Shown here: in pieces, positions 2,219 through 41,886 of the stretch | Layout: each line of letters begins with the position of its first letter | Position numbering within the stretch: the first letter of the stretch is position 1 | Assembly (NCBI GenBank): GCA_021740585.1 | Contig: JAIOZM010000001.1 | Span: 43,747-107,746 of the forward strand | Direction: 5' to 3' | Length of the DNA stretch: 64,000 nucleotides | Source of the DNA: Bacteroidales bacterium | GTDB taxonomy: Bacteria; Bacteroidota; Bacteroidia; Bacteroidales; GCA-2748055 | Program-made: the position numbers and the translations under genes | Notes under the pieces: generated by a model | Databases searched by the model: none | The model's input: only the letters and a program-made list of their open reading frames with translations | Told to the model about the DNA's origin: nothing

Positions 2219-2219
2219 C

Positions 2220-2980: not shown

Positions 2981-2992
2981 AAAATTATAGCT

Positions 2993-3715: not shown

Positions 3716-3737
3716 ACCTTTATTAAATTTTGTAAAC

Positions 3738-4289: not shown

Positions 4290-4307
4290 CAGTGCTGAAT
4301 AAAATAT

Positions 4308-4345
4308 AAATCAACGTTGGTGGATTTTTCCACTTTCGTTGATTT
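4308..4345. terminator. Bidirectional hairpin between convergent genes
   Basis: aaatcaacg (4308-4316) pairs with cgttgattt (4337-4345). An inner gtgga/tccac pairing is also present, followed by a T-rich tail. It sits between the stop at 4289 (+) and the stop at 4412 (-). Confidence 0.6.
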
Positions 4346-4411
4346 TATATTGTTGTGAAGAAATAGAAACAACAGCTTTCTAATTTTTCTGACGGAATAT
4401 GACCTTAGGTT

Positions 4412-6091: not shown

Positions 6092-6191
6092 GCCGTTTTG
6101 AGTGAATAAGGTGTGGATAATCCTAAAAAACTAATTTATTAGTCAGCTAAACAGAATTGACTAGTTCAGGAGAAAACAGAAAAAATCGCTT

Positions 6192-6836: not shown

Positions 6837-6953
6837 GTGTTTTAGGGTTTGGATTATAGGACAAGTTAATAAAAATGTAATTCTAAATGAAATTTAATCA
6901 GGTATTTATGAAAATATTATGTAACTTTATTTGCATTCTAATTCTATTCAGAA

Positions 6954-7871: not shown

Positions 7872-7997
7872 GAATAGAAAATGAGTCTGTTTTAGTAAGA
7901 ACCTGATATTTTCAAAAATTTATTTTCCCTTTTTGATTTTCCTTTAGCCTTGTCATATACTATTAATATGCTATTTTCGTAAAAAAAATAATATATA

Positions 7998-8630: not shown

Positions 8631-8793
8631 AAATGCGTATGGGCAAGTCTTATCAGGAAGTATTTATAATCCTTTTTTTATAAAGACTGCTGAAAAAATT
8701 GTTTGTAAGCCCCTAAATTCTTCCCTCAAAATATTTCTTATTGGTCTCCCGATGTTGTAATTTTATTCTTTAAACATTTAAAACCATTTTTAT

Positions 8794-9108
8794 ATGATCA
8801 TTTCTACTACAGATTACATCCCGGGAAGGGAGATTTCTGAAATAGTCGGCGTAGCCAGAGGCAGCACTGTAAGGGCCCGAAACATTGGAAGAGATATTTT
8901 TGCAGCTCTAAAGAATGTTGTGGGAGGTGAAATAGAAGAATATACAAAATTACAGGCCTATTCGCGTGAGCAGGCATTGCAGCGAATGGAGGCCGATGGG
9001 AAAAAGCTTGGAGCTGATGCCATTATAAACGTAAGACTGGCAACATCCATGATAGTTCAAGGTGCAGCTGAGATTTTGGCTTACGGTACCGCTGTCAAAT
9101 TAAAATAA
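8794..9108 (+). CDS. YbjQ/UPF0145 family protein
   Basis: Full-length similarity to the UPF0145 pattern: TTDYIPGREI..VGVARGSTVRARNIGRDIFAALKNVVGGEI.EYT ... GADAIINVR. Confidence 0.8.
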   Translation: MIISTTDYIPGREISEIVGVARGSTVRARNIGRDIFAALKNVVGGEIEEYTKLQAYSREQALQRMEADGKKLGADAIINVRLATSMIVQGAAEILAYGTAVKLK

Positions 9109-9266: not shown

Positions 9267-10295
9267 TTATTGCTTCATAAATTTTGTGATATGTGAGCTA
9301 TTGTCCTGCCCTGAAAGTTTAATGAAATACAATCCCGGTTTTAGAGATTCAATGCTTATTTCATTTCCTTCAGTTTGGAGGATCAGCTTACCTAATGCAT
9401 CATATATTTCCTTACTTCCCTGATAAAAACCGGGGATTTTAAGTACATCTTTTGCCGGATTTGGATAGATTGAATATTGAGGAAAAGTATCAGAATTACT
9501 CTTTGGTATACCCGTATTATCCCTGTAAATATAATCCACAAACTCGGGTCTGTCGATAAAGGGATTGCGGTTATGCTGGTAGCTGTATATTACATCGTTA
9601 CGATTTTTCTCGAAGTCATCAACCGGATCGAGATCGTGCCATTCCAGCAGTGTGCTTAATAAGGCGTGAACCGGTTCAGATGTGTGATCATCGGCAGGGA
9701 AATAATCGATTACTTCTAAATCAGGATCCCCATTTTCGCCCTCGTATCGGGTAGCCATATAAAAAATGATCCGCGCCACATCGCCTTTTACAGCTGCTCT
9801 GGGTTCCCATGTGTAATTGGCGTCGGAATAGAAACATCCTGTAGCCCCATCAGGGTCAGTATATGCAACACCGCCATTATCAAACCAGCGACTGTCGCGT
9901 TTGCTGTTAACGGTAATATCGGTAGGTCTGAGATGGTGTGCGTCTCTTCCCGGAATATCATCTTCATCGAATGCTCCATGCGACTTAGCCCATACATGTT
10001 CACGGTTCCAGCCGGTGTTGTTATTATATTCCTGAGCGGCATTTACGCTCCAGCCGGTATAAAAGAGAATTACATTCGCTGAATTGTTTGGATCGCGATC
10101 TGAAACTTTAAGTATATCCCATATATCGGTTGAGGAGCCGGAATAAGGATATGCAGTGTGTCCTTTTATGATGTTATGCAAAGCGGTTTTAAGTTCTTCG
10201 GCTTTTAGACCTTCAGCTGAATCATAATATCCGGTTGGAATTTGGGCTAACAAGCTTAGTGGCAGGAAGAATAGAATGTAGAATATATATCTCAT
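9267..10295 (-). CDS. Secreted endonuclease I family nuclease with T9SS C-terminal sorting domain
   Basis: Signal peptide. NREHVWAKSHG and DAHHLRPTDITVNSKRDSRWFD fit the endonuclease I / extracellular nuclease family. The C-terminal ~80 aa (YSIYPNPAKDVLKI ... GLYFIKL) looks like a Por secretion tail. Confidence 0.75.
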   Translation of the reverse strand: MRYIFYILFFLPLSLLAQIPTGYYDSAEGLKAEELKTALHNIIKGHTAYPYSGSSTDIWDILKVSDRDPNNSANVILFYTGWSVNAAQEYNNNTGWNREHVWAKSHGAFDEDDIPGRDAHHLRPTDITVNSKRDSRWFDNGGVAYTDPDGATGCFYSDANYTWEPRAAVKGDVARIIFYMATRYEGENGDPDLEVIDYFPADDHTSEPVHALLSTLLEWHDLDPVDDFEKNRNDVIYSYQHNRNPFIDRPEFVDYIYRDNTGIPKSNSDTFPQYSIYPNPAKDVLKIPGFYQGSKEIYDALGKLILQTEGNEISIESLKPGLYFIKLSGQDNSSHITKFMKQ

Positions 10296-12108: not shown

Positions 12109-12144
12109 AAACCGCTGGCTCATTTACTTATGAAACAGCGGTTT
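12109..12144. terminator. Hairpin shared by the ATPase gene (+) and tRNA-Glu (-)
   Basis: aaaccgctg (12109-12117) pairs with cagcggttt (12136-12144), followed by atttatttt. Confidence 0.6.
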
Positions 12145-17608: not shown

Positions 17609-18028
17609 TTATCGAGTAAATCGGGCAAAAAACTCAAGCACAATATTACCATCATCAGTTGTATAGAACCATTCAATATTATTAAGGTCCTGATTAACTT
17701 TTCCGGAACCATTTATAAAAACACTTGAGATGACCTGATTTTCAATTCTAAGAGTGTCATTAAATAAAGAGGCATATAGAAATTCCAAGTTTCCCAGATT
17801 ATTAAAATTGCTAATTATATAGAGATTTTCCTGGGAACTAACTTTGTCTATTTCGACAAGAAACTTCTTATAGCCAGAATAGGGAGAATTTTCTTCACAG
17901 GAATAGGCTCCCGTCAAATCTGGATAGATTTTACCTTCCTTGTTTAATTCGCAGCCTGTTGGAAACAGACAGATAATAATAACGGAAAAGATAAAGCTAA
18001 AATATTTTCTTCTCTTCATCGTTTTCAT
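17609..18028 (-). CDS. Small lipoprotein, unknown function
   Basis: ATGs at 18028 and 18019 give MK(TMK)RRKYFSFIFSVIIICLFPTGC (lipobox). Its 5' end overlaps the stop of the upstream MORN-repeat gene (17997), indicating the same operon. Confidence 0.55.
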   Translation of the reverse strand: MKTMKRRKYFSFIFSVIIICLFPTGCELNKEGKIYPDLTGAYSCEENSPYSGYKKFLVEIDKVSSQENLYIISNFNNLGNLEFLYASLFNDTLRIENQVISSVFINGSGKVNQDLNNIEWFYTTDDGNIVLEFFARFTR

Positions 18029-19190
18029 ATATGGATTTTTGTACAATATTACCATCTTTATCATAGGCTTTTGCTAAGCCATTTCTTTCACCATTTGTAA
18101 AATATATTTCGGTCATAATTTCACCTGTTTCATAATAAGTTTGCCACAAACCTTCTTTGTTATTATTTGCATATTGCCCGGAGTTTTTAAGTTTACCAGA
18201 CTCATAAAATAGTAAAAACTTTCCTGTAGCATCTCCCTGCTCAAAGTTACCCTTTTGCTTCATTTTGCCGTTGTCATAATAAATCAGCCATTCTCCGTGG
18301 AAGCTACCATTTTTATAAGCACCGAATGTGTATAGCTGACCGTTCATGTAAAAAGTCTTCCATTTCCCATTTTTTACTCCTTTTTGATATTCCCCCAATT
18401 CATAAAGACTTCCCTGCTTGTTTTCTAGTTCCGATTCATAATACTTAGAGAAATCACCTGATAAAGTGTCATTAATATAATTAGATCGCAACATTATTGC
18501 TCCGGAAGGATAGAAGCCTGTGAACTCACCATTTATTTTACCTTCCTGATAAAAACACTCCTTTTGTATAGCTCCATCTTCAAATTCTTTGTAAAAGCTT
18601 TGAAATTTACCCTCATATAAATTTTCCTTCATAAAAGATTTCTCTCTTATTATTCCGTTTTCATAATAGATCTCCTGAATTCCATTAAGCATTCCATTTA
18701 AGTAATTTTTCCTAAAACGCAATTTTCCGTCTTGAAAATAAGCAATAACCTCCCCCTCTAACAGCCCCAAAGAATAGTAAGCGATTTCGCTTGGCTGACC
18801 GTCTTGATAAAATATTTTTGAAAAACCATCATTCAAATCATCTTTGTATTCAACCTGTTGGGAAAGAATGCTATCTGGATAGAAAAACTCATATACTCCG
18901 GTCATCTTACCAGTTGAATAAGGCATAATTTGTTTGATCTTACCATCAGGATAATAATCTTTCCAAACTCCATCCAATTCATTTTCCAGGAAGTTACCTT
19001 CTTGCCAAAGGACGCCATTTTCATAATATATCTTATATACACCTTGTTTAATAGTGTCATTTTTTAGAATTATAGCCTGATATTTTTCTTTTATTTGATC
19101 ATTACTATTGTATTTTGTAATAATCCATTCTTGTCCGAAAAGAGAATTACCGAACATTAAAAAAGTAAAAGCTATAATAATTTTTAGCAT
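17997..19190 (-). CDS. Secreted MORN-repeat-variant (YwqK-like) protein
   Basis: Signal peptide MLKIIIAFTFLMFGNSLFGQ, followed by about 14 repeats of the G.w..yY.nG.l type. Its ATG overlaps the TAA of the upstream gene (TAATG at 19192..19188). Confidence 0.75.
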   Translation of the reverse strand: MLKIIIAFTFLMFGNSLFGQEWIITKYNSNDQIKEKYQAIILKNDTIKQGVYKIYYENGVLWQEGNFLENELDGVWKDYYPDGKIKQIMPYSTGKMTGVYEFFYPDSILSQQVEYKDDLNDGFSKIFYQDGQPSEIAYYSLGLLEGEVIAYFQDGKLRFRKNYLNGMLNGIQEIYYENGIIREKSFMKENLYEGKFQSFYKEFEDGAIQKECFYQEGKINGEFTGFYPSGAIMLRSNYINDTLSGDFSKYYESELENKQGSLYELGEYQKGVKNGKWKTFYMNGQLYTFGAYKNGSFHGEWLIYYDNGKMKQKGNFEQGDATGKFLLFYESGKLKNSGQYANNNKEGLWQTYYETGEIMTEIYFTNGERNGLAKAYDKDGNIVQKSIYENDEEKKIF

Positions 19191-19993
19191 TATTCTACCT
19201 CCAGTAAAATTTGAGAACCTTCAATAGCTGTATTATTTCCGTAGTCCATTAAAAAAGCCAGAGCGTAGGTTCCGGGTTCAATTTTTCTAGGCAAAGTAAG
19301 GCTAACTTTCCTTTCAAAACCAGGATAAACAGATACTGTTTGGGGAGTAAACTGTTCTTCTGAAGCAGTTTCGAGATTAGCCAGCGCTAAGAATATTTTT
19401 GCGTTGATCACTTTATCACCCAGATTAACAATAACGGCTTCATAATGTCTTAACTCATCGTCCGGCTTGGTAATATCAATTAAATCCTTAATACTGGCTT
19501 TGTAATTTTGGTTAGCACGTGGACTTTGGTTTACAAGAACCACAATACGAGGAACAATAATAACACCTGTAGCGAGCTGTTTATCTGCTGCTGAAGGAAC
19601 CTGTTCTTTAGCGAGCTGAACCCGAATCATTCCCCACCTTGTATTATATCCATCCCTTGGAACATTCATTATTAACTCAACTTCCGCGCTCTCATTAGGG
19701 TTTAGTTCGACTAATGATGGATTTATGTTTATCCAGTTGAACAGAGTTCGGGAAGAGCTTCCAGCCTCCATTTGTGATTTTCCACCATCTGGGCTTGGTT
19801 CATAGTCAGAAAGGCTAAGAATAAATTTTTGTCTTTCAGGATTGTGATTTCTAATGGTGAGTATTTTAGACTGGGATTCTCCGGGGTTAGCATCAAAGTT
19901 TATCAATACAGGTGCCACTTCAAAATCCTGACCTGATAATGACAATAAAGAGAGAAAAAAAATATTTGTTAATAAAATATAAACTTTTTTCAT
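19190..19993 (-). CDS. Periplasmic two-domain Ig-fold protein, putative PapD/DUF916-like assembly chaperone
   Basis: Trimmed to ATG 19993 (MKKVYILLTNIFFLSLLSLSGQ). DFEVAPVLINFDANPGESQSKILTIRNHNPERQKFILSL ... INPSLVELNPNESAEVELIMNVP shows the strand pattern of pilus-chaperone/MSP-like Ig domains. A second beta domain follows. The assignment is by pattern only. Confidence 0.4.
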   Translation of the reverse strand: MKKVYILLTNIFFLSLLSLSGQDFEVAPVLINFDANPGESQSKILTIRNHNPERQKFILSLSDYEPSPDGGKSQMEAGSSSRTLFNWININPSLVELNPNESAEVELIMNVPRDGYNTRWGMIRVQLAKEQVPSAADKQLATGVIIVPRIVVLVNQSPRANQNYKASIKDLIDITKPDDELRHYEAVIVNLGDKVINAKIFLALANLETASEEQFTPQTVSVYPGFERKVSLTLPRKIEPGTYALAFLMDYGNNTAIEGSQILLEVE

Positions 19994-20208
19994 ACTAATT
20001 TGGTTGTTAACATGAAGTAAATGAGGAACAAATGAAAATATTTTGATTGAAGATTTATAAAAAATAATATTTTTAGTCAATGAAATGTAACCTTTAGTAA
20101 TCAAATATCGTTACAACGTCAAAATTAACCATGTAAGGAATTATTAAATTTTTCTTCGTTTCAAAATTAAAAAAAAATTGGGATTATTAATTTATTAAAT
20201 TTAAAAGT

Positions 20209-20910
20209 ATGAAAAAGAATGTAGTTTTATTATTAGCAATTATGTTTACTGGTAGTCTGTTTGCACAGGCTGTAAAAGACAGACAAGTTATCCCTGTAGC
20301 TGTTACTTTGAATCAGGTTTTAAGAATGACCATAACCAACGGTGGAAATATAGAATTTGTTTTTAACTCTATTGATGATTATAGGGATGGTTTATCAGCT
20401 GTTGTTGGAGCCGCCAACCCACTAGCTTCAATAGGTTTTTATCAAACTGATTTTACTGTTGCTTCTTCAACCCGTTGGTTAATTAACTATGGTTCTGAAC
20501 AAGCTACATTTATTGGAACCGACAATCCGGGAAATCAGCTTGCTTTAGACAATGTAGGTTTTTCTATCACTAATTCTGGCACTAATACTTTTGATCCTGT
20601 TGCAAAGGGTAATACAGCAGGTAGTCAACTCTGGAGTGCTTCTACTGCTGGCGCAACTGAAGTTGCAGCTCTTGAAGTTTATCCGGTTGTGTTAATTGAA
20701 GATAACGATGACGTTGAGGTTGCTGGTGTTGGTGGTGCTAACGCTGGTGATGGTACTGACAATTCCTTCAGTCTTTTATGGAGATGTGGAACAGGTGAAG
20801 ATGCTGGTACTGTACCTATGAGCACGGAATCAATACTTAATCAAAGTCCAAGTCCAAACCCAGATAGGTATGTAACAAACGTTCTTTTTGAATTGGCAGT
20901 AGATAATTAG
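20209..20910 (+). CDS. Secreted beta-rich putative fibre subunit A
   Basis: Signal peptide MKKNVVLLLAIMFTGSLFAQA. The protein is Gly/Thr/Asn/Ala rich and has no Cys except in LLWRCGTGE. It is paralogous to the next gene (NIEFVFNSIDDYRDGL vs SIPFNFNSIEKYEKGI; LALDNVGFSITN vs LSLDKIRVRADN). Confidence 0.5.
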   Translation: MKKNVVLLLAIMFTGSLFAQAVKDRQVIPVAVTLNQVLRMTITNGGNIEFVFNSIDDYRDGLSAVVGAANPLASIGFYQTDFTVASSTRWLINYGSEQATFIGTDNPGNQLALDNVGFSITNSGTNTFDPVAKGNTAGSQLWSASTAGATEVAALEVYPVVLIEDNDDVEVAGVGGANAGDGTDNSFSLLWRCGTGEDAGTVPMSTESILNQSPSPNPDRYVTNVLFELAVDN

Positions 20911-20936
20911 AAGATCCTATTAGAATATTTTCTTTA

Positions 20937-20965
20937 GAAATAGTCAACTTATCGTTGACTATTTC
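20937..20965 (+). terminator. Rho-independent terminator/attenuator between subunit genes A and B
   Basis: Perfect 12-bp stem gaaatagtcaac / gttgactatttc with loop ttatc, followed by tattttta. Confidence 0.7.
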
Positions 20966-20996
20966 TATTTTTACATTTTGTGTCTTAAATCATAAA

Positions 20997-21461
20997 ATGA
21001 AAAAGCCATTATTTATCGTTTTCGTTATTTTTATTATGTGCTCGGCTTACGGCCAGGAGTGGAATTATGCGAGACTTTCTGTTTTGTATGGTGGAAGCAT
21101 TCCATTTAATTTTAATTCAATCGAGAAATATGAAAAGGGAATTGAAATTTTGGATGGTACCATTTTGGGGATTACGCTTGCAGATTCCTCAGCTTTAGGC
21201 ACCATATTGGAGGGATTTGTTTTAAATATCAGGACTTTCAATGGAGCCACTGAAATTTTGGGGGATGTAAGTACGCTTAGTCTGGACAAAATTAGAGTTA
21301 GGGCCGATAATTATTTAGGACTTGGTGCTGGAACGTCATATGGATACCAGGATTTAAGTGCTGTTTGGAATGCCATATTTTCATATTCTAATTTATCATT
21401 TACCGATTTAACTTGGGATAGTCACCAATTAAGTATATCATATGGTGCGGAAAGCCATTAA
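20997..21461 (+). CDS. Secreted putative fibre subunit B (apparently frameshifted; homologous C-terminus continues in the -1 frame to 21556)
   Basis: Trimmed to ATG 20997 (MKKPLFIVFVIFIMCSAYGQ). Paralogue of subunit A. See the frameshift finding. Confidence 0.5.
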   Translation: MKKPLFIVFVIFIMCSAYGQEWNYARLSVLYGGSIPFNFNSIEKYEKGIEILDGTILGITLADSSALGTILEGFVLNIRTFNGATEILGDVSTLSLDKIRVRADNYLGLGAGTSYGYQDLSAVWNAIFSYSNLSFTDLTWDSHQLSISYGAESH

Positions 21462-21839
21462 TTGAAGGGGGAAATGGTTCAATGCTTGGGGAGGAACCGG
21501 ATTATTATACTGTTGAAATAGAAATAGAAATTGTCCCAACAGGGCTTGGCTTTTAATAAGAGAGATTTTCATTTTGTGAAGCAAAACTAAATAAGTGGAT
21601 TTATGCTGAATATTGTTCAGTACTAATCCCAAGCGAAGACGCAGGAATTATTGGCTTATATTATCTGTCTTTATACAGGCAGGCTCGTCATTGGATCGGA
21701 AAAAATACAATCCATCAAGATACTTCCTCACTTCTCGGTTGGGGCTTCATTTTTTTGATGGAATAATATGACAATAAATTATAATAAGTAAATAATTGTG
21801 TTAAAACCCTGGTTCAATATCGATAGTAATAGGTGTTGG

Positions 21840-24800
21840 ATGTACTTATTTGGCGGATATTACAGGGAATCTCCATTAATTTCTTCATCAAACATTAGCG
21901 AGTTATCTGCAAGATTATCCTCTATACAGCTTAGTTTATCTCATAGCCTTTCCAATAAATTCTTTATTTTTGTTTTTCTATTTTTCTCTTTCCCCAATCT
22001 TTTATTTTCCCAATCTCAGGTTGAAGAAAGTGAAGTGTTAATTTCCTTTGCAAAAAAAAGTGTAATCCTACCTCAATCATCTACATTTTTTAATGTTGTT
22101 ATTATTGAAAACAAAGGTAGTGAAGTTCTCTCTGGAACTGTCGTGTTTAATAAGCCCAGTCCATGGTCTTTTATCGGCAGTCCTGAGTTTGATGTATCTA
22201 TTGAACCGGGGAAGAAGGAATATTATCCGGTGAGAGTTGGTATTCCAAGGAACACCATTGGCGGAGTGTCATTCATAGTTCAGGTTGAGCTTTTAACTAA
22301 AACTAGCACGTATTCTACGATTTCTTATGTTTCAATTGAAAAGAATTCTCATTGGGATATGAAAGTTCTCAATACTAACCTTTATTTGAGCGATTTCAGG
22401 CCTGTTGGTGACTTTGATCTTAAGCTTGAAAATACTGGGAATTCAAAAGAAATGATAAAGCTTAATTTTGATATTGGACAATTGTTACAGTTCAAAACTT
22501 TTATTGAAGCTGATAGCATTTTGTTTATTGAACTGCCAGCCTATTCAGATACAACAATTAAATTTGAGGTTTTTAGAAGAAAGGATCTTTCTTATGCAGA
22601 AATCAGAACTCAAATCACTAATTGGAAATCAACAAGTATATATATTGAGGCCTCCACTCCATACTATAAGACTTATGCCGGATTAAGAGTTATTCCTCTT
22701 GAAAGCAAGATTATTAATGATACGCCTATTAGAAATTCACCGTTAAATGTGGATATGACGCTATATAATTTATTATCCTTTCAGAAACCTAAAGCAGCAC
22801 TTAAATTACATGGAAAATTAATATTTCCTGAAAACCAACAGTTACAATACTCCTTTGGGATAAACAGCCTTTATTTTAATAAGGATCTTTATCAAAACTT
22901 TGATTTAGCTCAACAAATGCGCTATATGGTAAGGTACAATGACTCCAAAACTCAGGTAATGCTCGGTGATAGGCTTGGAGTGGGGAGTTTACATACTATG
23001 TCGGGTAATGCCTTAAAAGCTCAACATTCTCTCGATGCTAACCAGTTGGTAAGCTTAAATTTAGTCCAGAATCCATATGGATCAAGTTTTGGTTCTTTTT
23101 TAGGTTATAGGACAAGGATTGGCAGAACAGGGGTAAACACAGGGGTCACTCTTGAATCTGCGAATAGATCAAATGCAAATTATTATACTTTTCATTTGGG
23201 CGGAACTTATAATTTCTTGAAGCATCATACTTTACAATTGCAAACTGCGACCAGCTTGAATAATTTTTCTAAAGGGGCATTTCTTCAAAATGATACAACA
23301 ACAATTGGATTTGCCTATAGAGCAAGTTATCATTATAGTAACGAAAAGTTTAAATTCCGGATTGATAATACCAATACTACATTCACTCAACTAAAAAATT
23401 CAGGAAGAAATTTTATTAATACTGATTTGTATTATCAGATCAATTCAAAGAGTCGTTTTTTGGGAAGGTATTACAGAAGTTCTTATTTATCGAACCTATA
23501 TCCCTATAGTTTCTACTTCTCAGGAAATAGCTCGAGAAATGAAAATGGGCGGCTTTTGTATTCATATTCCGATGGAAAAATGGTCTATAATATGGGTGCT
23601 CAGTTTTCTGGGGCAATGAGAAATTCCTACAATCAAGCAACAGATTTTTCAACGAAATATACTAATTATCAACCGGGCTTGATAGGCTCGGTTACATTTC
23701 GTTTGGGGGGTATGAGAAACATTACTCCTAATATAGCTATAAATTCGATGTACTTTAATTACAATACAAATATAGAAGGTGATGAGCCCTATAGTATTTC
23801 TGGCAGATTGCATTACACTGTTGGACTAAGTTATTTTGATCAAGCTTTCAGAATAAATGCCTATTATAGTAGTGGCGATGCATCTGAAATATACCGGAGT
23901 GCTGTTTCTGATGAAGAACCAGCTATAGGGCAAGCAGTGCAAATAAGACCTAGTTATGAACGATATTTTAAAGATGATAAAATAAGGCTGAATGTCTATT
24001 ATAATTATTCATATTTTATACCCTCTTTGAGGGAAAATACCGTCCTCAATATTACTTCAAATTTTATGATGGACAAAGGATGGAGTGTTTATGGTAGTTT
24101 AAATTTGTTCAAGAATTCCAGAAATGACAATGACTATGGAAGAGTAATCACGAGAGATCTCAATCTAATGTTAGGATTTCGGAAAGCTTTCGATATTCAG
24201 CAGCCAGGAATGAAGTATTATAATGTAGCAGTCATAGGTTTTAATGATCAGGATGGGGATGGCGTTAAAGATGATGATGAGAAACCCGTGTCAAATGTTT
24301 TGATCAATTTAAAAAGGGATCCAAAGAAAAATAAGGAGGACAAGGCCTTATTCCAGGAAACAAAACTTGTTACTGATCCTAATGGGGAGATCTTTTACGG
24401 GAAAATGCCCGGGGGCGTTTATGATCTTGAAATTACACCACTTACTAACCTGGAGGATCTTTTTTTTCTCGATGGCAGGAATCAACAAATGACATCAGAT
24501 GAAGATAAGATTCATTATTTACCCTTGGTGGAGAGTTATAAAGTCAGAGGTAAGATAATTGTAGACAGAGACCCGAATAGTACACATGGAAGAATTAATC
24601 TGGAAGGAATAAGAGTTTCAGGTACAGCAGAGAACGGATCAAGCTATTCAACTCTCACAAATAGTAATGGTCAATATGTTTTGAACTTACCAAAAGCAAA
24701 TATTTATACAATTAAGATTTATAATGTCTTCGGTGAAACTTTTATGTTGCAAAAAGGAGAATTTGAAGTTCAATTTATGGAAGACAAGGCCCTAAATATT

Positions 24801-24884
24801 GATTTTCAATTTACTGAACAAAAAAGAGAAATCAAATTTAAAGAAGGTCAGCAACTATTTGATTTTCAAATTGATAAGAAATAA
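21840..24884 (+). CDS. Large outer-membrane protein: 2 Ig-like (CARDB/NEW3-like) domains + ~550-aa beta-barrel region + 2 Cna-B/SdrD-like C-terminal domains; putative usher-like pore
   Basis: The first ATG is at 21840; the track start at 21798 is GTG. A hydrophobic segment FFIFVFLFFSFPNLLFSQ is present. The middle region is rich in alternating Y/N/S/G strands (YYTFHLGGTYNF, IGFAYRASYHYS, LNVYYNYSYF). The C-terminus has GFNDQDGDGVKDDDEKPVSNVLINL ... GGVYDLEI and GIRVSGT..NGSSYSTLTNSNGQYVLNLP. Confidence 0.5.
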   Translation: MYLFGGYYRESPLISSSNISELSARLSSIQLSLSHSLSNKFFIFVFLFFSFPNLLFSQSQVEESEVLISFAKKSVILPQSSTFFNVVIIENKGSEVLSGTVVFNKPSPWSFIGSPEFDVSIEPGKKEYYPVRVGIPRNTIGGVSFIVQVELLTKTSTYSTISYVSIEKNSHWDMKVLNTNLYLSDFRPVGDFDLKLENTGNSKEMIKLNFDIGQLLQFKTFIEADSILFIELPAYSDTTIKFEVFRRKDLSYAEIRTQITNWKSTSIYIEASTPYYKTYAGLRVIPLESKIINDTPIRNSPLNVDMTLYNLLSFQKPKAALKLHGKLIFPENQQLQYSFGINSLYFNKDLYQNFDLAQQMRYMVRYNDSKTQVMLGDRLGVGSLHTMSGNALKAQHSLDANQLVSLNLVQNPYGSSFGSFLGYRTRIGRTGVNTGVTLESANRSNANYYTFHLGGTYNFLKHHTLQLQTATSLNNFSKGAFLQNDTTTIGFAYRASYHYSNEKFKFRIDNTNTTFTQLKNSGRNFINTDLYYQINSKSRFLGRYYRSSYLSNLYPYSFYFSGNSSRNENGRLLYSYSDGKMVYNMGAQFSGAMRNSYNQATDFSTKYTNYQPGLIGSVTFRLGGMRNITPNIAINSMYFNYNTNIEGDEPYSISGRLHYTVGLSYFDQAFRINAYYSSGDASEIYRSAVSDEEPAIGQAVQIRPSYERYFKDDKIRLNVYYNYSYFIPSLRENTVLNITSNFMMDKGWSVYGSLNLFKNSRNDNDYGRVITRDLNLMLGFRKAFDIQQPGMKYYNVAVIGFNDQDGDGVKDDDEKPVSNVLINLKRDPKKNKEDKALFQETKLVTDPNGEIFYGKMPGGVYDLEITPLTNLEDLFFLDGRNQQMTSDEDKIHYLPLVESYKVRGKIIVDRDPNSTHGRINLEGIRVSGTAENGSSYSTLTNSNGQYVLNLPKANIYTIKIYNVFGETFMLQKGEFEVQFMEDKALNIDFQFTEQKREIKFKEGQQLFDFQIDKK

Positions 24885-32448: not shown

Positions 32449-33535
32449 CTACCTCCCAAACTCCATTAAAAATGCCTTAATAAAAGGATTCAGATTTCCG
32501 TCTAAAACATCCTGAACGTTTCCGGTTTCATAATTAGTACGAAGATCTTTGGCTAATTTATATGGGTGAAGCACGTAATTCCTGATTTGAGATCCCCATT
32601 CAATTTTTTTCTTCGTGCTTTCAATCTCCTGCTGTTTTTCCATCTTTTTTCTCAGTTCCATTTCATACAAATGAGACCGTAGAATTCGCATGGCATTTTC
32701 TTTATTCTTGCCCTGTGATCTGGTTTCAGTGTTTTCGACCGTTATTCCGGTAGGAAGGTGTCTGACACGCACCCCCGTTTCAACTTTGTTTACATTCTGC
32801 CCACCTGCGCCTCCGGAGCGGAAGGTGTCCCAGCTCAGATCGGAAGGATTAATAACTATTTCAATATCATCATCTACTACCGGAGAAACAAATACAGAGG
32901 CAAAGGAAGTATGTCGACGTGCATTGGAATCGAAAGGGGAGATTCTTACCAGACGGTGAACACCATTTTCTGCCTTAAGAAATCCATAAGCATAATCACC
33001 CGTAAATTCCAGAGTAACTGACTTGATCCCAGCCTCATCGCCATATAGGAGACTGATTTCTTTGACTTTAAAGTCGTTTCTTTCACCGTATCGCAAATAC
33101 ATTCTCATGAGCATTTCTGCCCAATCCTGACTTTCTGTACCCCCCGCACCGGCATTGATTTTTAAAATAGCTCCAAATTCATCCTCCTCTTTTCCAAGCA
33201 TATTTCTGAATTCCAAAGCTTCAATACGCTCAATGGTAGTAGTATGCTGAGCTATTACTTCATCTTCCTCGGCTTCTTTTTCCTGGTAGAATTCAAATAA
33301 AACCTGCAAATCTTCAATACTGCGTTCTATGGCTTCAAAAGAATTGGTCCAGCTTTTCAGGCGTGAAATTTCTTTGAGTTTGAGCTCGGCTTTTTTGGCA
33401 TCATCCCAAAATCCGGGTTCCTGGGTAACTCTTTCCTGTTCTAAAATATCTTTTAATTTATTATCGATGTCAAAGATGCCTCCTTAACGCATCCCGGCGA
33501 TCAATAACAGATTTCATTTCGTCATTGTTTATCAT
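32449..33535 (-). CDS. prfB: Peptide chain release factor 2, requires programmed +1 frameshift (segments 33535..33473 and 33471..32449)
   Basis: Frame 0 from ATG 33535 reads MINNDEMKSVIDRRDALRRHL and then UGA (33472..33470). The +1 frame continues DIDNKLKDILEQERVTQEPGFWDD... into track ORF 32449..33309, which carries the SPF and GGQ motifs (RSGGAGGQNVNKVETGV). Confidence 0.95.
33469..33486 (-). promoter_or_regulatory. RF2 autoregulatory +1 frameshift site
   Basis: Minus strand reads UAAGGAGGCAUCUUUGAC: an SD-like AGGAGG, 3 nt, then the CUU UGA C slippery/stop context. Confidence 0.9.
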
Positions 33536-36095: not shown

Positions 36096-36365
36096 ATTTT
36101 GGTGTAATTATTGTATATTTGTTCATGTTCATTTAAATAAAGAGTTTTGTTACTGAATAACAATAAGTTGAAAGTAAATAACATAAAGAATTTCTTAGTC
36201 ATTTAATACCAGATAAACGTGTTAAAGCCTAATGACATAAACATTGAGTAATAAACTTTTCGATTCGGTTTGCTTACTAACAAATTTATATACGAGATTA
36301 GCAAATGAGCAGGATTTAAGAATTTATTACATAAAGAAACATTTTGATAAAATAAATTAACCGCT

Positions 36366-38708
36366 ATGAAACGATACATAATCACTGCAATAATACTGGT
36401 GTTTTTTGGGACAACCTATGCCTCTTCGCAAAATGCCAAACAGTTCTACAAAGTAGGCGAGCAATTCTTTGAGAATAAAATGTATGATGATGCCATCGAA
36501 CAATTTACTGCTGCCATCAACTTTGATCCTGAAATGGATAAAGCCTATTTGTTCAGGGCTCAGGTGTATGAGAAACAAAGAAATTATGCATCTGCCCTTC
36601 TCGATTATAATAAACTTTGCATTTTTGATGAAGGTGAGGAAGAATATTTCTATAAAAGTGCTGAAATGAGTTACAATTTGAAGGATTATTCTAAATGCCT
36701 GACTACAGTTGAAAAAGCCCTTAAATTGAACAGCAGCTATTCACAGGCATTGGAATTAAAATTTAATGCACTATTTGCTCTGGAACAATATGCTGAAGCT
36801 TTGGATGTGTCAAAAAGAGCATTGAGGTACAAGGAAAGTGAAGTAAACTTTTATAATTATGGCAGAATTAACGAGGTGATGGGGCTCAATGATGATGCTA
36901 TTGATGCCTATACAAAGGCCCTTCGTAAAAACAGCTCTTTTCTGGAAGTTTATGTTAAACTGGCTGATTTATACCGCCGTCAGGCAAATCTGACATCGGC
37001 TATGGAAACCATTAATAATGCAATTGGAATAAGTAATAATTTTATCCCGGCATATGAGGTAAGAAGTGCAATTTATTCAGATCAACTTAACTATACAAAA
37101 GCTATTGAAGATATTTCAACCATTCTATCCCTTGATCCTTCCAACACGAAAATGTTCTTTTTAAGAGGAAAATATTATCAGGGATATGCTCAGCATATGA
37201 ATGCCATTACTGATTTTACCAAAGTAATAAGTCTGGATCCTGCATTTGTTGAAGCTTATTTTAACAGAGCCCAATCATACGAACAGGTTCAAATGTTGGA
37301 TAATGCTATTAATGATTATAAGCAGTTAGCATTGATTGCTGAAGATAATGAAGAGGCAATGGAAATGTTAGCACAGGCTGAAGGCCGGCTATTTGAATTG
37401 AACAGGGAAAATAAAAAACCAAAATTAGTACTTTCAACCCCGGAGGAGCAATTGGGAAGGGTTCTTCATATTCCCAGATCTGAAAATGTTGTACCTATTG
37501 TTGGAACAGCCACAGATGATAGCGAAATAAAATCTATTAAGGTTAATGATTTGACTACTCCTTTTACGAAAAAAGATAAGGGCTTTGAATTTTTGACTTC
37601 AGTTAACGTTAACGGATTGAAAAATTTAAAGGTTGAAGTTACCGACGTATACGATAATACAGAATTGGTTTTGTTCGACATTTTGAGGACTGAGGTTGAA
37701 AAACCGGTGGTTAAAATAATAGCGCCTTATGCTTCTGACAATAATGTAATTTATTTAGATACTCAGGATCCAATGATTTATGTAGAAGGCGTTATTTCTG
37801 ATGAAAGTCTGATAAAGGGAATTTATATCGATGGTGTTGTGGCAAGTTATGTCCCCAGCGATCTGAATCCAACCTTTGGAGCTATGATTTCAATTAAAAA
37901 TAAGAATCAGTTCACCATTAAAGCTACTGACGGATTTGGAAATGTCTCCGAAACCACTTTTTCTCTAAACCGGGAGTCAGCTAATTTGCAGGCTGACAAT
38001 CCCATGGGAAAAACCTGGGTTGTGTTTATTGAAAATTCCAATTATCAAAGTTTTGCTAGTTTGGAAGGACCAACCAAGGACATTTTACTTATGAAAACGG
38101 CTCTGGCGAATTATAGTATTCATAACTTTATACATAAGAAAGATATGACGAAGCAGGATATGGAGAGGTTCTTCGCTATTGAACTTCGTGATCTTCTTAG
38201 TAGCAACAGGGTAAACTCCTTACTTGTTTGGTACGCCGGTCATGGGAAATTTGTTAATGAAACCGGTTACTGGGTCCCTGTCGATGCTAAAAGGGATGAC
38301 GAATTTACTTACTTCAATATTAATGCACTAAAGGCTTCCATGCAATCATACCCAACCAATGTTAATCACACCCTTATTATTACAGATGCCTGTGAATCGG
38401 GTCCTTCTTTTTATCAGGCCATGAGATCGGGTTTGCAGGATAGAAATTGCAATGATGTTTCTGCAGTAAAATTAAAATCTTCTCAGGTATTCTCATCTGC
38501 AGGTTATGAGCTGGCTGTCGACAATAGCCAGTTTACCAGAACATTTGCTAACTCCTTGGCCAACAATGTAGATGCTTGCATTCCAATTGAAAGTATCGTT
38601 CAAAAAGTTACAGATGCTGTGGTTAATTCAAAACAGCAAAAACCTCAGTTTGGCAAAATTGCCGGTCTTGAGGATGAAAATGGCACATTCTTTTTTATAA
38701 CAAAATAA
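36366..38708 (+). CDS. Secreted TPR - 2x Ig-like - caspase (peptidase C14) protein
   Basis: Signal peptide MKRYIITAIILVFFGTTYASSQ, followed by about 9 TPRs (aa 25-345) and two Ig-like modules. The caspase domain has WVVFIENSNYQ ... LLVWYAGHG (His626, 38241-38243) ... LIITDACESG (Cys676, 38391-38393). The C-terminal QFGKI..(E/D).G.F(F/V)F tail is shared with the 4412..6091 protein. Confidence 0.8.
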   Translation: MKRYIITAIILVFFGTTYASSQNAKQFYKVGEQFFENKMYDDAIEQFTAAINFDPEMDKAYLFRAQVYEKQRNYASALLDYNKLCIFDEGEEEYFYKSAEMSYNLKDYSKCLTTVEKALKLNSSYSQALELKFNALFALEQYAEALDVSKRALRYKESEVNFYNYGRINEVMGLNDDAIDAYTKALRKNSSFLEVYVKLADLYRRQANLTSAMETINNAIGISNNFIPAYEVRSAIYSDQLNYTKAIEDISTILSLDPSNTKMFFLRGKYYQGYAQHMNAITDFTKVISLDPAFVEAYFNRAQSYEQVQMLDNAINDYKQLALIAEDNEEAMEMLAQAEGRLFELNRENKKPKLVLSTPEEQLGRVLHIPRSENVVPIVGTATDDSEIKSIKVNDLTTPFTKKDKGFEFLTSVNVNGLKNLKVEVTDVYDNTELVLFDILRTEVEKPVVKIIAPYASDNNVIYLDTQDPMIYVEGVISDESLIKGIYIDGVVASYVPSDLNPTFGAMISIKNKNQFTIKATDGFGNVSETTFSLNRESANLQADNPMGKTWVVFIENSNYQSFASLEGPTKDILLMKTALANYSIHNFIHKKDMTKQDMERFFAIELRDLLSSNRVNSLLVWYAGHGKFVNETGYWVPVDAKRDDEFTYFNINALKASMQSYPTNVNHTLIITDACESGPSFYQAMRSGLQDRNCNDVSAVKLKSSQVFSSAGYELAVDNSQFTRTFANSLANNVDACIPIESIVQKVTDAVVNSKQQKPQFGKIAGLEDENGTFFFITK

Positions 38709-38715
38709 TTTAGCA

Positions 38716-41700
38716 ATGACATATATGCCTATAAGATTTTTAGTGAAGAATATTCGTCTGTTTAGACGAATATTTTTTTTATCATGTCTGTTTCTTTCAT
38801 TGAATGTTGAAGGACAGAATTATTTTTTCGATTCATATAGTGTTGCCGAAGGTCTGGCACAATCGACAGTTTTTGATATTCTGCAGGATCAGAACGATTA
38901 CGTATGGCTTGGAACCCGGGCGGGAGTAAGTCGGTTCGACGGACAGGAATTTATTAATTTCACTGCAGAAGACGGACTCGCAGTGAACAGCGTTCGGATT
39001 ATTTTTCAGCAGAAGAATAGTAATAATATTTGGTTTGGTCATGTGGGAGGAGGGATAAGTTTTTATGATGGACATGTTTTTCATGAATTTTCCAAAGGAG
39101 AAACCTTTACTTCCGATATTACAGGATTTGTATTTGATTCGGATGGAAATTTCTGGATAAGTTCCGAAGGATCAGGGGCTGTAAAGATTAAAAGTATTAA
39201 GAAAACGTTGGAGGAATCGGTCTTTGAAATCTATAAAGGGAATGATTTAAGCGACAGAATCTTCGGGATTTTGAAAACTTCAGATAATAAACTATTATTT
39301 CTTACCGATGCTTTTGTAAAGAAATATGATGCTGAAAAAAATGTTTTTGAAAGCTTCAATATGGATGGGATGCCTACTTTTTTCCAAATAACATCTTTGT
39401 ATGAGGATAGTAAGAAGAATTTATGGTTCGGCACATTCCATGGTGGCTTATACAAATATGATGCGGAACTTGGAAGCTTTAAGATTTATGATATCAGGGA
39501 CGGATTAAGCTCAAACTGGATCAGCAATGTAGGAGAAGATCGGAATGGAAACACATGGGTGGGCACCTGGGGTGGCGGGATTACCCTTATTTCACCTGAT
39601 GGCTTGAAAATTTATAATCAGGAAAATGGTTTGCCCGATACCAAAATCAGAAGGGTCTTGGAAGACAGGGAAGGGAATATGCTAATTGGGAGTAATGAGA
39701 ACGGACTGGTAATTTATAAGGGGGATGAGTTTATTTCATATTTTGTTGAAGATGGACTTGTAAATTCACAAGTGTGGGCTATTGAGCAGGATGAAACGGG
39801 AAAATACTGGTTTGGAACCAACCAGGGAATTAGTATACTAAATCCTAAAAATAAACAATTCACTAATTTTTATAAGCTAAAGGAAAACGGAATCAGATTC
39901 CTGAAGAAAGATTCTAAAAACAGAATGTGGATAGCTACTGATAATCAGGGCATCTTTACACAGAATTTGAACAACGGCGTATTTACCTATGAGCCCGGTT
40001 TAAACTCATATTTATCCTCTTTAATTGTTACCGCTCTTGAAGCAGATAATCGGGGTATTATTTGGGTTGGGGCTCTTGATGCATTGGTTGGTTACGATTA
40101 CGATACCAGAACGGCAGTTTATTTTACTCAAACTTCCGGTCTCTCAACCAATGAAGTTACCGCTTTATATTTTTCAGAGAAGAGTGAGCGCTTATGGATT
40201 GGAACCCGCGATGGCGGTTTAAATTATTACGAAGGAGATAGTATTTATCAATTAAATCTTGAGGAGACCTTTACTCCAACTTCCATCACAAGCGATAATG
40301 ATGGGAGTTTATGGCTTGGCACAGAAGCAAAAGGAGTCCTGAAAATAGATACTGAGAACTCAAAAATTTTGAAGGATTTTAAAGTGTCGGATGGATTACT
40401 GGCCAATCTTATAAACCTCGTAGAGGTGGATGAAATGAATAATGTGTATATCGGTACAAACAAGGGATTAAATATTTATGATCAGAACAGGGACAAGTTA
40501 TTGACTTATAACAATAAAAATGGCTTTGTTGGGATTGAAACAAAGCCATCTGCGGTTCATAAGGATACTGAAGGGAATCTTTGGTTTGGAACCGTTCTGG
40601 GAGCTACAAGATATGATCCCGACAAAATGAAAAAGCAGGTTACTGATCCTCTCACACACATAATCAGCATTAAAGTTAACCTTCAGGACAGAGATCTTAC
40701 ACCTGGACTTACATTGAAATATACAGAGAATGATGTAGTTATCGATTATATCAGCATGTGTTTAACTAACCCTGATGCTGTTGCATATAAGATAATGTTG
40801 GAAGGTGCTGAAAATGACTGGCGACCGGTTACACGTCAAACACGGGTAACATATCCTTCACTGGCTCCCAGAAAGTACACTTTCAAGGTTATTGGAAGGA
40901 ATAATGAAGGGACATGGAATTCTGAGCCCATTAGCTTCTCATTTCAAATCAGACCACCTTTCTATCTGACGGTTTGGTTTATCATAACAGTTTTAACTCT
41001 GATTACAGCTGCAATTATTTCATATATCAAAATACGGGAAAGAAATCTTTTAATTGAGAAAAGAATTCTTGAGGACAAAGTAAGAGAAAGAACTGCGGAA
41101 GTGGTGGCTCAAAAAGAGGAGCTTGCTGAGAAAAATAAGGATATCACAGATTCAATCAGATACGCAAAACGTATTCAGGTTGCAATACTTCCGCCAAAAA
41201 TACCTTTCGACGACACATTTGTCTTATTCAAACCAAAAGATATTGTAAGTGGCGATTTTTATTGGTTTGAAGTTGTTGGGGATCGTGAATTTATGGCGGC
41301 AGTGGATTGCACCGGACATGGTGTTCCTGGAGCATTTATGTCAATAATAGGTACAAACCTTTTAAATAAAATTGTGAAAGAGCGTGGCATTTATAAACCT
41401 TCAGAAATTATTGACACACTGAACGAAGAGGTTATACACAATCTTAAGAGCGGGGATGAGGGGAGTAAGGTTTATGATGGTATGGATCTTGCGCTTGTGT
41501 GCTATAACCGACGCACCGGACAACTGGAATATGCCGGTGCCTATAATCCATTGTTAATAGTGAGGAATAACGATATCGAAGAAATTAAAGCCGACAGATT
41601 TGGTGTAGGGAGATCGTCGAGGGTGGAGGAAGCCAGAAAGTTTACCAACAATGAAGTTCAAATCAATAAAGGAGAGACGATTTATATTTTCTCCGATGGT

Positions 41701-41886
41701 TTTGCTGATCAATTTGGAGGAGATACAGGTAAGAAGTTTAAATCCAAGCCAATGAAAGAGCTATTTCTGGCTGTATATGAAAAGCCCTTGGATGTTCAGC
41801 AGGAAATTCTTGAAAAAACGCTTGAAGCCTGGAGAGGCAATATTGAACAGGTTGATGATGTGCTGATTATTGGGCGGCGATTTTGA
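38716..41886 (+). CDS. Sensor phosphatase: periplasmic two-component-regulator propeller repeats + Y_Y_Y domain, one TM helix, coiled coil, PP2C/SpoIIE phosphatase
   Basis: Repeated W.GT..GL..(Y/F)D blades. The Y_Y_Y region has AYKIMLEGAENDW. The TM helix is FYLTVWFIITVLTLITAAIISYI. The SpoIIE domain has SGDFYWFE ... AAVDCTGHGVPGAF ... DGFADQFGG ... QVDDVLIIG. Confidence 0.85.
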   Translation: MTYMPIRFLVKNIRLFRRIFFLSCLFLSLNVEGQNYFFDSYSVAEGLAQSTVFDILQDQNDYVWLGTRAGVSRFDGQEFINFTAEDGLAVNSVRIIFQQKNSNNIWFGHVGGGISFYDGHVFHEFSKGETFTSDITGFVFDSDGNFWISSEGSGAVKIKSIKKTLEESVFEIYKGNDLSDRIFGILKTSDNKLLFLTDAFVKKYDAEKNVFESFNMDGMPTFFQITSLYEDSKKNLWFGTFHGGLYKYDAELGSFKIYDIRDGLSSNWISNVGEDRNGNTWVGTWGGGITLISPDGLKIYNQENGLPDTKIRRVLEDREGNMLIGSNENGLVIYKGDEFISYFVEDGLVNSQVWAIEQDETGKYWFGTNQGISILNPKNKQFTNFYKLKENGIRFLKKDSKNRMWIATDNQGIFTQNLNNGVFTYEPGLNSYLSSLIVTALEADNRGIIWVGALDALVGYDYDTRTAVYFTQTSGLSTNEVTALYFSEKSERLWIGTRDGGLNYYEGDSIYQLNLEETFTPTSITSDNDGSLWLGTEAKGVLKIDTENSKILKDFKVSDGLLANLINLVEVDEMNNVYIGTNKGLNIYDQNRDKLLTYNNKNGFVGIETKPSAVHKDTEGNLWFGTVLGATRYDPDKMKKQVTDPLTHIISIKVNLQDRDLTPGLTLKYTENDVVIDYISMCLTNPDAVAYKIMLEGAENDWRPVTRQTRVTYPSLAPRKYTFKVIGRNNEGTWNSEPISFSFQIRPPFYLTVWFIITVLTLITAAIISYIKIRERNLLIEKRILEDKVRERTAEVVAQKEELAEKNKDITDSIRYAKRIQVAILPPKIPFDDTFVLFKPKDIVSGDFYWFEVVGDREFMAAVDCTGHGVPGAFMSIIGTNLLNKIVKERGIYKPSEIIDTLNEEVIHNLKSGDEGSKVYDGMDLALVCYNRRTGQLEYAGAYNPLLIVRNNDIEEIKADRFGVGRSSRVEEARKFTNNEVQINKGETIYIFSDGFADQFGGDTGKKFKSKPMKELFLAVYEKPLDVQQEILEKTLEAWRGNIEQVDDVLIIGRRF

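Follow-up and report, generated by a model that had tools for sequence, protein, structure and literature searches.

What does a caspase-like protease do outside the cytoplasm, and what, if anything, links it to the receptor phosphatase encoded a few bases downstream? The question is raised by two adjacent genes, here called A and B, in a stretch of 64,000 nucleotides (nt) from a Bacteroidales bacterium (GTDB lineage Bacteria; Bacteroidota; Bacteroidia; Bacteroidales; GCA-2748055; GenBank assembly GCA_021740585.1, contig JAIOZM010000001.1, positions 43,747 to 107,746 of the forward strand). We refer to this whole stretch, which has a G+C content of 36.8%, as the window. Bacterial caspase homologues have mostly been discussed as cytoplasmic death or defence effectors. 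A sequence-only reading of the window had proposed that A and B are co-transcribed and that they may couple an extracytoplasmic proteolytic event to Ser/Thr phosphatase signalling. We find that the two genes are a vertically inherited envelope operon in the core genome of an uncultured Bacteroidales clade, and that a conserved, terminator-like hairpin lies within the signal-peptide codons of B, probably making co-transcription of the pair partial. A and B are new members of known families, and it is their association and the embedded hairpin that are undescribed: in full-text literature searches, neither a caspase-PP2C pair nor this hairpin was found described, and the sequence-only reading had known of no described example. 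The elements of the operon are as follows.

36114-36121 (+): candidate Bacteroidota -7 box, TATATTTG, within the 270 nt between ribD and A
36366-38708 (+): gene A, an open reading frame (ORF) encoding a predicted exported TPR-Ig-Ig-caspase protein of 780 amino acids (aa)
38709-38715 (+): A-B spacer, 7 nt
38716-41886 (+): gene B, an ORF encoding a receptor-type PP2C phosphatase of 1056 aa
38745-38778 (+): terminator-like hairpin, GAAGAATATTCGTCT-GTTT-AGACGAATATTTTTT, then TT

Genes A and B are kept together across an uncultured Bacteroidales clade

Upstream of the pair lie prfB, recX, prmC and ribD, and downstream a LOG-family gene, trxA and dnaE, the last three in convergent orientation. Protein P0121, from a metagenome-assembled genome (MAG), is 100% identical to B and is annotated 'SpoIIE family protein phosphatase [Bacteroidales bacterium]'. 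Whole-protein searches with A were swamped by its TPR array, and the Ig-Ig-C14 module was used instead. Scanning one genome per GTDB species with an alignment of this module returned 578 relatives of A, the best 80 of them being without exception syntenic orthologues from MAGs of Bacteroidales or Bacteroidota; all carriers of the A-B pair that were found are uncultured MAGs. The orthologues of A are 779-786 aa long in nearly all loci.

Non-adjacency in related genomes had been named in advance as grounds for dropping the link between the two genes. Instead, tblastn places B directly 3′ of A in 69 of 79 assessable loci, and in 70 of 79 once locus L043 is resolved: here A is tandemly duplicated in one species (3037-8872 of that locus), and there is a 1-nt overlap between B and the second copy. 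The distance from the stop codon of A to the start of B has a median of 5.5 nt among the 66 measurable pairs and is at most 30 nt in 58 of them, and overlaps are frequent among the orthologous pairs (-4, -35, -41). The reverse comparison gives the same picture, since A lies upstream of B in all six independently chosen phosphatase orthologues (48-100% identity). Taking these six samples together with the 70 pairs, B was never found apart from A. A metagenome scan with B returned only nine distant relatives, which were used as an outgroup and are not accompanied by a caspase gene.

The block prmC-ribD-A-B-(LOG)-trxA-dnaE is syntenic across the clade as a whole. Where the flanks have been rearranged, the pair has stayed intact: the downstream flank is rearranged in the clade comprising L056/66/70/71/73-76/79/80 and in L081/82 and is inverted in L057, while ribD is missing upstream in L048/59. 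In all, there have been about four to five independent flank rearrangements, and the A-B junction was broken in none.

A recurrent promoter box lies upstream of A and not of B

We searched up to 300 nt upstream of each gene for the Bacteroidota -7 consensus TAnnTTTG. For A, 52 of 70 loci have such a box, in most cases 40-100 nt ahead of the ATG. For B, the count is 7 of 60, which is indistinguishable from the internal control (5 of 73). In the window itself, the box at 36114-36121 is the only plus-strand match between 36114 and 43184. A scan for sigma-70 promoter and terminator consensus sequences was uninformative, with 27 promoter-like sites against 23.4 expected and five terminator-like sites against 4.0. 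Because the promoter box recurs upstream of A and not of B, expression of B apparently relies on read-through from A.

A and B thus show the features of an operon, namely a common strand, a short spacer and one predicted promoter region with none for B. The gap measures 7 nt rather than the 8 nt given in the sequence-only reading. As predicted from sequence, co-transcription of A and B is well supported and probably attenuated, or partial: the shared promoter region bears out this part of the earlier claim, and the hairpin at the start of B casts doubt on full read-through.

The signal-peptide codons of B contain a conserved hairpin

Folding of the A-B junction revealed a hairpin that the terminator consensus scan had missed. 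It comprises 15 base pairs followed by a U-tract, has a ΔG of -15.1 kcal/mol and begins 29 nt inside B, within the codons for the signal peptide; the folding z-score of the surrounding region (38650-38780) is -3.5. The statement that no hairpin separates the genes was therefore literally true of the spacer and misleading as to the junction.

A stem of at least nine pairs is present at the equivalent position in 39 of 67 loci. Across 35 aligned species, 94.9% of cells can pair, compared to 45-60% with slid partners; the 35 sequences were chosen for having the hairpin, which inflates the percentage paired and leaves the position-specific compensatory changes unaffected. Eight of the 15 pairs have changed on both sides, with 41 such cells against 12.4±4.2 in shuffles, and RNAalifold recovers essentially the same helix (14 of 15 pairs). 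One pair, 25-40, links two third-codon positions and covaries (UA 16, CG 9, UG 9). A covariance model run against 1.54 Mb of sequence matched no other site than this one, which it recognised in 47 sources (the window and 46 related loci), including the most divergent ones (L081, L082, L096 and L097), which are absent from the seed. Rfam contains no known RNA family matching between 34800 and 42700.

The hairpin also has to encode protein. Its arms specify the K-I-I-R and R-I-I-F segments of the signal peptide of B, the A-tract codes for the basic Lys/Arg n-region and the U-tract for the hydrophobic Phe/Ile/Leu core. The compensatory changes replace encoded residues in either arm, as where KII...RII has become QTI...RMV in L028, which argues for selection on nucleic-acid structure rather than on the peptide. 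The embedded hairpin is thus a clear case of overlapping constraints, in which an RNA structure of terminator design is kept by changes that rewrite a signal peptide on both arms.

Which function does the structure serve? With a stable stem-loop, a U-tract and covariation, it has the structural hallmarks of an intrinsic terminator, and the same arrangement of A-tract, stem and U-tract is seen in the gene-end hairpins at 4308-4345, 12109-12144 and 20935-20967. Our reading is that of a predicted intrinsic terminator that is leaky, with a translational throttle as the less likely alternative; each of the two would keep B below A. Taken together, the hairpin is conserved and terminator-like, termination itself is predicted, and co-transcription of A and B is probably partial. 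If so, the element bears on how operons set unequal expression without intergenic space. It resembles known intra-operon intrinsic terminators and attenuators in its GC-poor perfect stem, its upstream A-tract and downstream U-tract, and its position between co-oriented coding bodies under one promoter. Unlike these, it is embedded in the downstream coding sequence and maintained by compensatory changes that are partly non-synonymous.

A role other than termination is unlikely, if not markedly so. The structure could throttle translation of B, stabilise the 3′ end of a processed A mRNA or be a regulator-bound DNA palindrome. It lies within about 30-65 nt of the start codon of B, where RNA structure can depress initiation, and the A-tract and U-tract make it symmetric, so that the covariance model matches the minus strand too. 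A protein operator with fixed spacing is argued against by the loop, whose length varies from 4 to 12 nt across species while pairing and compensatory changes run right up to it. The design also equals that of the hairpins at real gene ends in the window. A throttle or a stabiliser would in any case lead to the same net result as leaky termination, more A than B.

At the other end of B, the gene and its convergent LOG-family neighbour end on neighbouring bases (41886/41887), with 0 nt between them and no space for a terminator after B.

Gene A encodes a predicted periplasmic caspase

The features of A, all on the plus strand, are as follows.

36366-36428 (+): type I signal peptide, aa 1-21, predicted cleavage before Gln22; N-terminus MKRYIITAIILVFFGTTYASS, then QNAK
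36432-37400 (+): TPR array, aa 23-345, 19 helices, about 9.5 repeats
37422-37970 (+): two Ig-like beta-sandwiches, aa 353-442 and 448-535
38007-38705 (+): C14 caspase-fold domain, aa 548-780
38241-38243 and 38391-38393 (+): codons of the catalytic residues His626 and Cys676
Asp572 and Asp674: putative S1 residues

The TPR-Ig-Ig-C14 architecture that had been assigned to A by eye is borne out by Pfam and structure prediction. The TPR array, the only part of A that Pfam detects, matches TPR_1/2/11/16 with E values down to 3e-23. In a full-length AlphaFold model, the helices (aa 12-345) have a predicted local distance difference test (pLDDT) score of about 95 and the Ig-like segments are all-beta with a score of about 87. 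The second Ig-like domain aligns with a Glucodextran_B-type domain of the paralogue described below, and several orthologues of A carry precomputed PF09136 matches. The caspase domain came out poorly in the full-length model (pLDDT 35-70). After the paralogue family had been added to the alignment, the rebuilt domain model reached a pLDDT of 90.2 and a predicted template modelling (TM) score of 0.90. The best Foldseek match of this domain is the MALT1 paracaspase (E 9e-12, TM score 0.62-0.65); next come caspases 1/3/8/9 and a fungal metacaspase.

By sequence, the assignment is less direct. The window protein has no match to Pfam PF00656 at E<0.01, stays below the cut-off of the NCBIfam family NF047832 'caspase, EACC1-associated type' (43.5 bits versus 140; E 2.4e-11) and reaches MALT1 only marginally in a profile search of solved structures (E 0.018). 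Since PF00656 is not reached, the assignment rests on the orthologues, many of which carry precomputed PF00656 matches, and on the paralogue, the fold and the catalytic residues. In the domain model, His626 follows beta3 (strand 79-85) and Cys676 follows beta4 (strand 129-135). D572, H626, D674 and C676 are invariant in 80 of 80 orthologous loci, and the catalytic dyad is also invariant across the wider family alignment. Judging by conserved residues and modelled fold, A is thus predicted to be a C14 peptidase of paracaspase/metacaspase type with an intact catalytic site.

Comparison with MALT1 extends to the predicted specificity. In a hidden Markov model alignment, Asp572 corresponds to MALT1 Asp365, 50 residues before the catalytic His, and Asp674-x-Cys676 mirrors D462-x-C464. 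In MALT1, the P1 Arg is anchored by Asp365, Asp462 and Glu500 (PMC4626109). Because two conserved acidic S1 residues match Asp365 and Asp462, A likely has a basic (Arg/Lys) P1 specificity. The two proteins also share the HG...(F/Y)(M/W)xPxDA sequence after the catalytic His. The GYW insert noted there earlier is indeed present, although not as a peculiarity of this genome: the GYWxPxDA segment aligns with SFMVPVDA of MALT1 and is family-typical.

With MALT1 (MEROPS C14, PDB 3uo8/3v4o), metacaspases and orthocaspases, A has in common the caspase-hemoglobinase fold, the His after beta3 and the Cys after beta4. As in MALT1, Ig-like domains lie directly N-terminal to the protease, and TPR domains are among those most commonly fused to bacterial metacaspases (PMC3501461), as in A. 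Sequence identity to MALT1 is only about 16%. A further differs from its C14 relatives in its Sec signal peptide, in the lack of a detected death domain or NTPase and in its operon link to a receptor phosphatase.

In A and all sampled orthologues, the N-terminal hydrophobic segment ends just before a Gln, the pattern described as the Q-rule for signal peptidase I substrates of Bacteroidetes, in which Gln follows the cleavage site directly (PMC5837995). The window protein has no lipobox Cys, no match to a type IX secretion system (T9SS) C-terminal domain and no further hydrophobic segment, and a Q-rule signal peptide in this setting suggests a soluble protein of the periplasm. By these sequence signals, A is most probably Sec-exported, soluble and periplasmic. 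The Q-rule is followed by both caspase proteins of the window and by the phosphatase, whose signal peptides all stop right before Gln (36366-36431, 38716-38817 and 6029-6091 (-)), and by their orthologues.

Mean identity to the window protein is lowest in the TPR array (0.375), rises through the first (0.39) and second (0.58) Ig-like domains and is highest in the caspase domain (0.775, or about 78% across the clade). Export, a place in the core genome and a protease domain that is the most conserved part of the protein point to a housekeeping or regulatory role of A in the envelope.

With A exported and encoded in the core genome, it is extremely unlikely that the locus is an anti-phage, conflict or programmed-cell-death module, with A as the TPR-caspase effector of an NTPase/EACC1-type system under phosphatase control. 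TPR-caspase fusions occur commonly in systems of this kind (PMC3501461, PMC7159879), A has its weak NCBIfam match to the EACC1-associated type (2.4e-11), and the paralogue matches the PADLOC 'caspase' model (5.7e-14). The NCBIfam scores of 43.5 bits for A and 67.6 bits for the paralogue nevertheless fall well below the cut-off of 140, A has no PADLOC caspase match and B no PADLOC match of any kind. The signal peptide places A outside the cytoplasm, no NTPase or EACC1 partner lies nearby, and the locus sits between ribD and trxA-dnaE, vertically inherited across the clade and with no signs of mobile elements.

Gene B encodes a sensor phosphatase built on a two-component receptor plan

The features of B, again on the plus strand, are as follows.

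38716-38814 (+): signal peptide, aa 1-33, predicted cleavage before Gln34; ending in RRIFFLSCLFLSLNVEG, then QNYFF
38818-40950 (+): periplasmic sensor, two Reg_prop beta-propellers (aa ~35-650) and Y_Y_Y (aa 684-745)
40954-41037 (+): single transmembrane helix, aa 747-774
41065-41883 (+): cytoplasmic linker and SpoIIE/PP2C domain, aa 784-1056

The propeller/Y_Y_Y-transmembrane-PP2C order read from the translation is confirmed by family matches. Pfam detects Reg_prop (1.4e-45), Y_Y_Y (6e-10) and SpoIIE (PF07228, 63.3 bits versus a cut-off of 25), and the helix at aa 747-774 is the only 19-aa window of B with a Kyte-Doolittle mean of at least 1.6 (maximum 2.33). The signal peptides of B orthologues show the same Q-rule pattern; a Tat signal was considered and rejected, as the twin Arg varies among them (GR, ER and KR are also found). 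The metal-binding motifs GDF (847), DCTGHG (864), SDGF (994) and VDD (1047) are invariant wherever orthologue sequence exists. B is, as its sequence predicts, a type I membrane receptor with a periplasmic sensor of the hybrid two-component system (HTCS) type, one transmembrane helix and a SiaA-like PP2C domain.

PDB relatives of the sensor are the glycan-sensing domains of Bacteroides HTCS proteins (3v9f, 3e-55; 4a2l, 1e-46), with which B shares Reg_prop propellers, Y_Y_Y and a transmembrane helix. It differs from them in its output: PP2C is the sole cytoplasmic domain found, in place of histidine kinase, receiver and AraC domains, and B does not lie beside a polysaccharide utilisation locus. 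The output domain matches the PP2C domain of SiaA from the Pseudomonas aeruginosa SiaABCD system (PDB 6k4e, E 1.9e-39), and the NCBIfam SiaA model NF038263 is matched at 1e-57 over profile positions 385-657 only, the C-terminal 273. Both proteins are membrane-anchored PP2C phosphatases with homologous catalytic domains and intact metal-binding motifs. Where SiaA has two transmembrane segments and a HAMP domain, B has an HTCS-type double propeller with Y_Y_Y; no siaB, siaC or siaD adjoins B, and at 196 bits versus a cut-off of 700 B is not a SiaA equivalog.

In SiaABCD, the PP2C domain of SiaA dephosphorylates SiaC-pThr68 in a partner-switch mechanism (PMC7647112). As had been noted before, no antagonist is encoded nearby: no STAS, SiaC or RsbW-type family was detected among 30 further window ORFs scanned against Pfam, and the remaining ORFs look like housekeeping genes from their translations. 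In one related genome (L081), a SiaC-family gene (PF09345; 19160-19195 (-)) lies about 8 kb downstream of the A-B pair.

We also considered and rejected a T9SS attachment complex of the PorU/PorZ type. Neither A nor B matches Por_Secre_tail, the PorZ matches of B (94.9 bits versus an equivalog cut-off of 260) reflect Reg_prop-type blades, and B is a predicted inner-membrane protein with a cytoplasmic PP2C domain.

Does the shared operon reflect a shared function?

We favour a reading in which B is expressed only by read-through from A, the hairpin acting as a leaky terminator or translational throttle that would hold the receptor below the level of the protease. The two proteins would probably take part in one and the same process in the periplasm, with the protease as autonomous core and the phosphatase as a dispensable signalling accessory that may sense the product, the substrate or the protease itself. 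B would probably dephosphorylate a partner-switch protein of the SiaC/STAS type whose gene lies elsewhere in the genome. The caspase might also cleave the sensor directly, although we do not favour this possibility. Functional coupling of A and B in this general sense we judge plausible, if just short of probable. It would offer a concrete hypothesis for what exported caspases might feed into, and it would give the sensor phosphatases of Bacteroidota a candidate periplasmic partner.

A number of observations weigh against this reading. As regards expression, the -7 box of the window lies 245 nt from the ATG of A, farther than is typical, and about 40% of B-containing loci have no detectable copy of the hairpin. 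As regards coupling, the conservation of the junction is not exceptional: by the same criterion, ribD is followed by A in 68 of 68 loci, prmC by ribD in 65 of 67 and trxA by dnaE in 51 of 55, compared to 62 of 73 for A followed by B. Since these unrelated housekeeping junctions are equally conserved, adjacency alone cannot show coupling, and it may reflect inertia. B is absent from 10 loci in at least six separate places on the A tree, a scatter which indicates that B is ancestral and has been deleted repeatedly. The deletions are clean, with 5-20 nt between the stop codon of A and a convergent gene. In these lineages A keeps its length and catalytic residues, and a relative-rate test detected no acceleration of A after loss of B beyond that of the controls ribD, prmC, trxA and dnaE. 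Two deeper family members of about 780 aa lack B: P0452 (L101, 6001-8349) is still beside ribD, has no phosphatase gene downstream and has lost the dyad (a pseudo-enzyme), and P0440 lies in a different gene context. Conversely, distant Reg_prop-PP2C paralogues of B (31% identity; L086 and L087) have no caspase neighbour. Finally, no gene for a substrate, a ligand or a partner switch was found among the window ORFs scanned. The proposal that proteolysis is coupled to phosphatase signalling thus remains a hypothesis, weakened in that neighbouring unrelated genes hold together at least as well and A is unchanged after repeated loss of B. The losses of B, the B-less distant relatives of A and the caspase-less distant relatives of B suggest that A is the older, autonomous gene and B a clade-specific, dispensable addition.

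Loss of the dyad is not confined to P0452, in which His is replaced by Leu and the Cys deleted; among the distant members of about 780 aa, P0431 (H to N, C to A) and P0461 (H to A) lack it too. P0420, an intermediate member of the family, lies on a contig that ends 38 codons into a co-oriented downstream gene. We considered one apparent fusion, P0061 (L098, 532-2442), as a Rosetta-stone link. In it, a HisKA-like N-terminus is joined to the last TPR and to the Ig and caspase domains, with the phosphatase gene still downstream. We rejected it as a probable chimera on a contig of 2x coverage.

The foregoing observations leave it possible, though doubtful, that the operon is shared and the function is not, a Reg_prop-PP2C gene having been inserted downstream of an older caspase gene in the clade ancestor and later carried along or deleted. 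Housekeeping junctions at least as well conserved as this one, at least six losses of B with no detectable effect on A and distant relatives of each gene without the other are what such a history would leave behind, and the terminator-like hairpin would partly uncouple the two genes. What fits it less well is the spacing, which has remained tight and often overlapping even with the phosphatase down to 48% identity. B lacks a promoter box and was not found apart from A, the flank rearrangements left the junction whole, and the recognition domains of both proteins are predicted to lie in the same compartment.

Co-localisation also bears on direct proteolytic gating, in which the periplasmic caspase would cut either B's propeller/Y_Y_Y ectodomain or a tethered inhibitor, thereby switching the PP2C domain on or off, by analogy with site-1 cleavage in regulated intramembrane proteolysis. 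The two proteins share a compartment and an operon, and across the B-carrying clade the catalytic dyad is intact without variation. We nonetheless consider this very unlikely: neither a conserved cleavage site nor a shed fragment can be deduced from the sequence, and A is kept unchanged where B has gone. HTCS-type sensors of the BT4663 kind are, moreover, ligand-gated rather than protease-gated (here homology alone was compared). DegS/RseP with sigma-E and SpoIVB with SpoIVFB, in which an extracytoplasmic protease is coupled to a cytoplasmic switch, resemble the earlier proposal by analogy only. These are serine proteases acting through intramembrane proteolysis of anti-sigma factors, whereas the output of the A-B pair would be Ser/Thr dephosphorylation.

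A more elaborate form of the coupling that we favour would be a previously undescribed trans-envelope module. In it, a periplasmic Arg/Lys-specific caspase would make, destroy or be the cue for the propeller receptor, PP2C would drive a partner switch, and the terminator in the signal-peptide codons would fix the ratio of protease to receptor. Assembled in full, this scheme is improbable.

A paralogous caspase gene belongs to a wide family

The window contains two caspase genes only, A and a paralogue.

4412-6091 (-): paralogue, 559 aa, with signal peptide, degenerate caspase domain, Ig-like domain and intact caspase domain

The sequence-only reading had recognised the caspase module of A as a paralogue of this one, and BLASTP agrees: the two align at E=9e-20, with 25% identity along 357 aa that take in the second Ig-like domain as well as the caspase domain. 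The motifs quoted in support, GYW(V/L)P.DA, DAC(E/F)SG and PQFGKI...F(F/V)F, are all present in both proteins, and the claim of exported caspase paralogues is supported for these two. The paralogue scores 66.9 bits against PF00656 (cut-off 21.4) and stays below the NF047832 cut-off (67.6 bits versus 140). Its N-terminal half (aa ~28-175) is a degenerate caspase domain (hhalign probability 92.9%) in which the catalytic His is replaced by Asn and the Cys by Thr, so that the protein is a tandem of pseudo-caspase, Ig and caspase.

The wider caspase family numbers 7908 cluster representatives at E<=1e-3, of which 101 remain at E<=1e-30. Such genes have been described as expanded in Bacteroidota (PMC3501461), which a family of this breadth fits.

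The neighbourhood of the paralogue is not conserved, two of its relatives being located between the genes for methylmalonyl-CoA mutase and fumarase. In the window, the paralogue gene is convergent with a cluster at 1250-4289 (+) that encodes CsgG-like, DUF4810 and GNA1162-like lipoprotein products and outer-membrane beta-barrel proteins. Between them lies a strong bidirectional terminator-like hairpin (4308-4345).

Further observations in the window

The prfB ORF (32449-33309 (-)) lacks its N-terminal part, and a CTTTGAC motif is found just upstream (33469-33475 (-)), as expected for the classical +1 programmed frameshift of release factor 2 (RF2). A homologue of endonuclease I with a T9SS C-terminal sorting domain is encoded at 9267-10295 (-), and its presence suggests a type IX secretion system in this organism. 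Several ORFs at 17609-21461 have no family match. Near them, at 21798-24884 (+), a 1028-aa protein is encoded whose only matches, weak ones to SdrD_B and CarboxypepD_reg, fall near the C-terminus.

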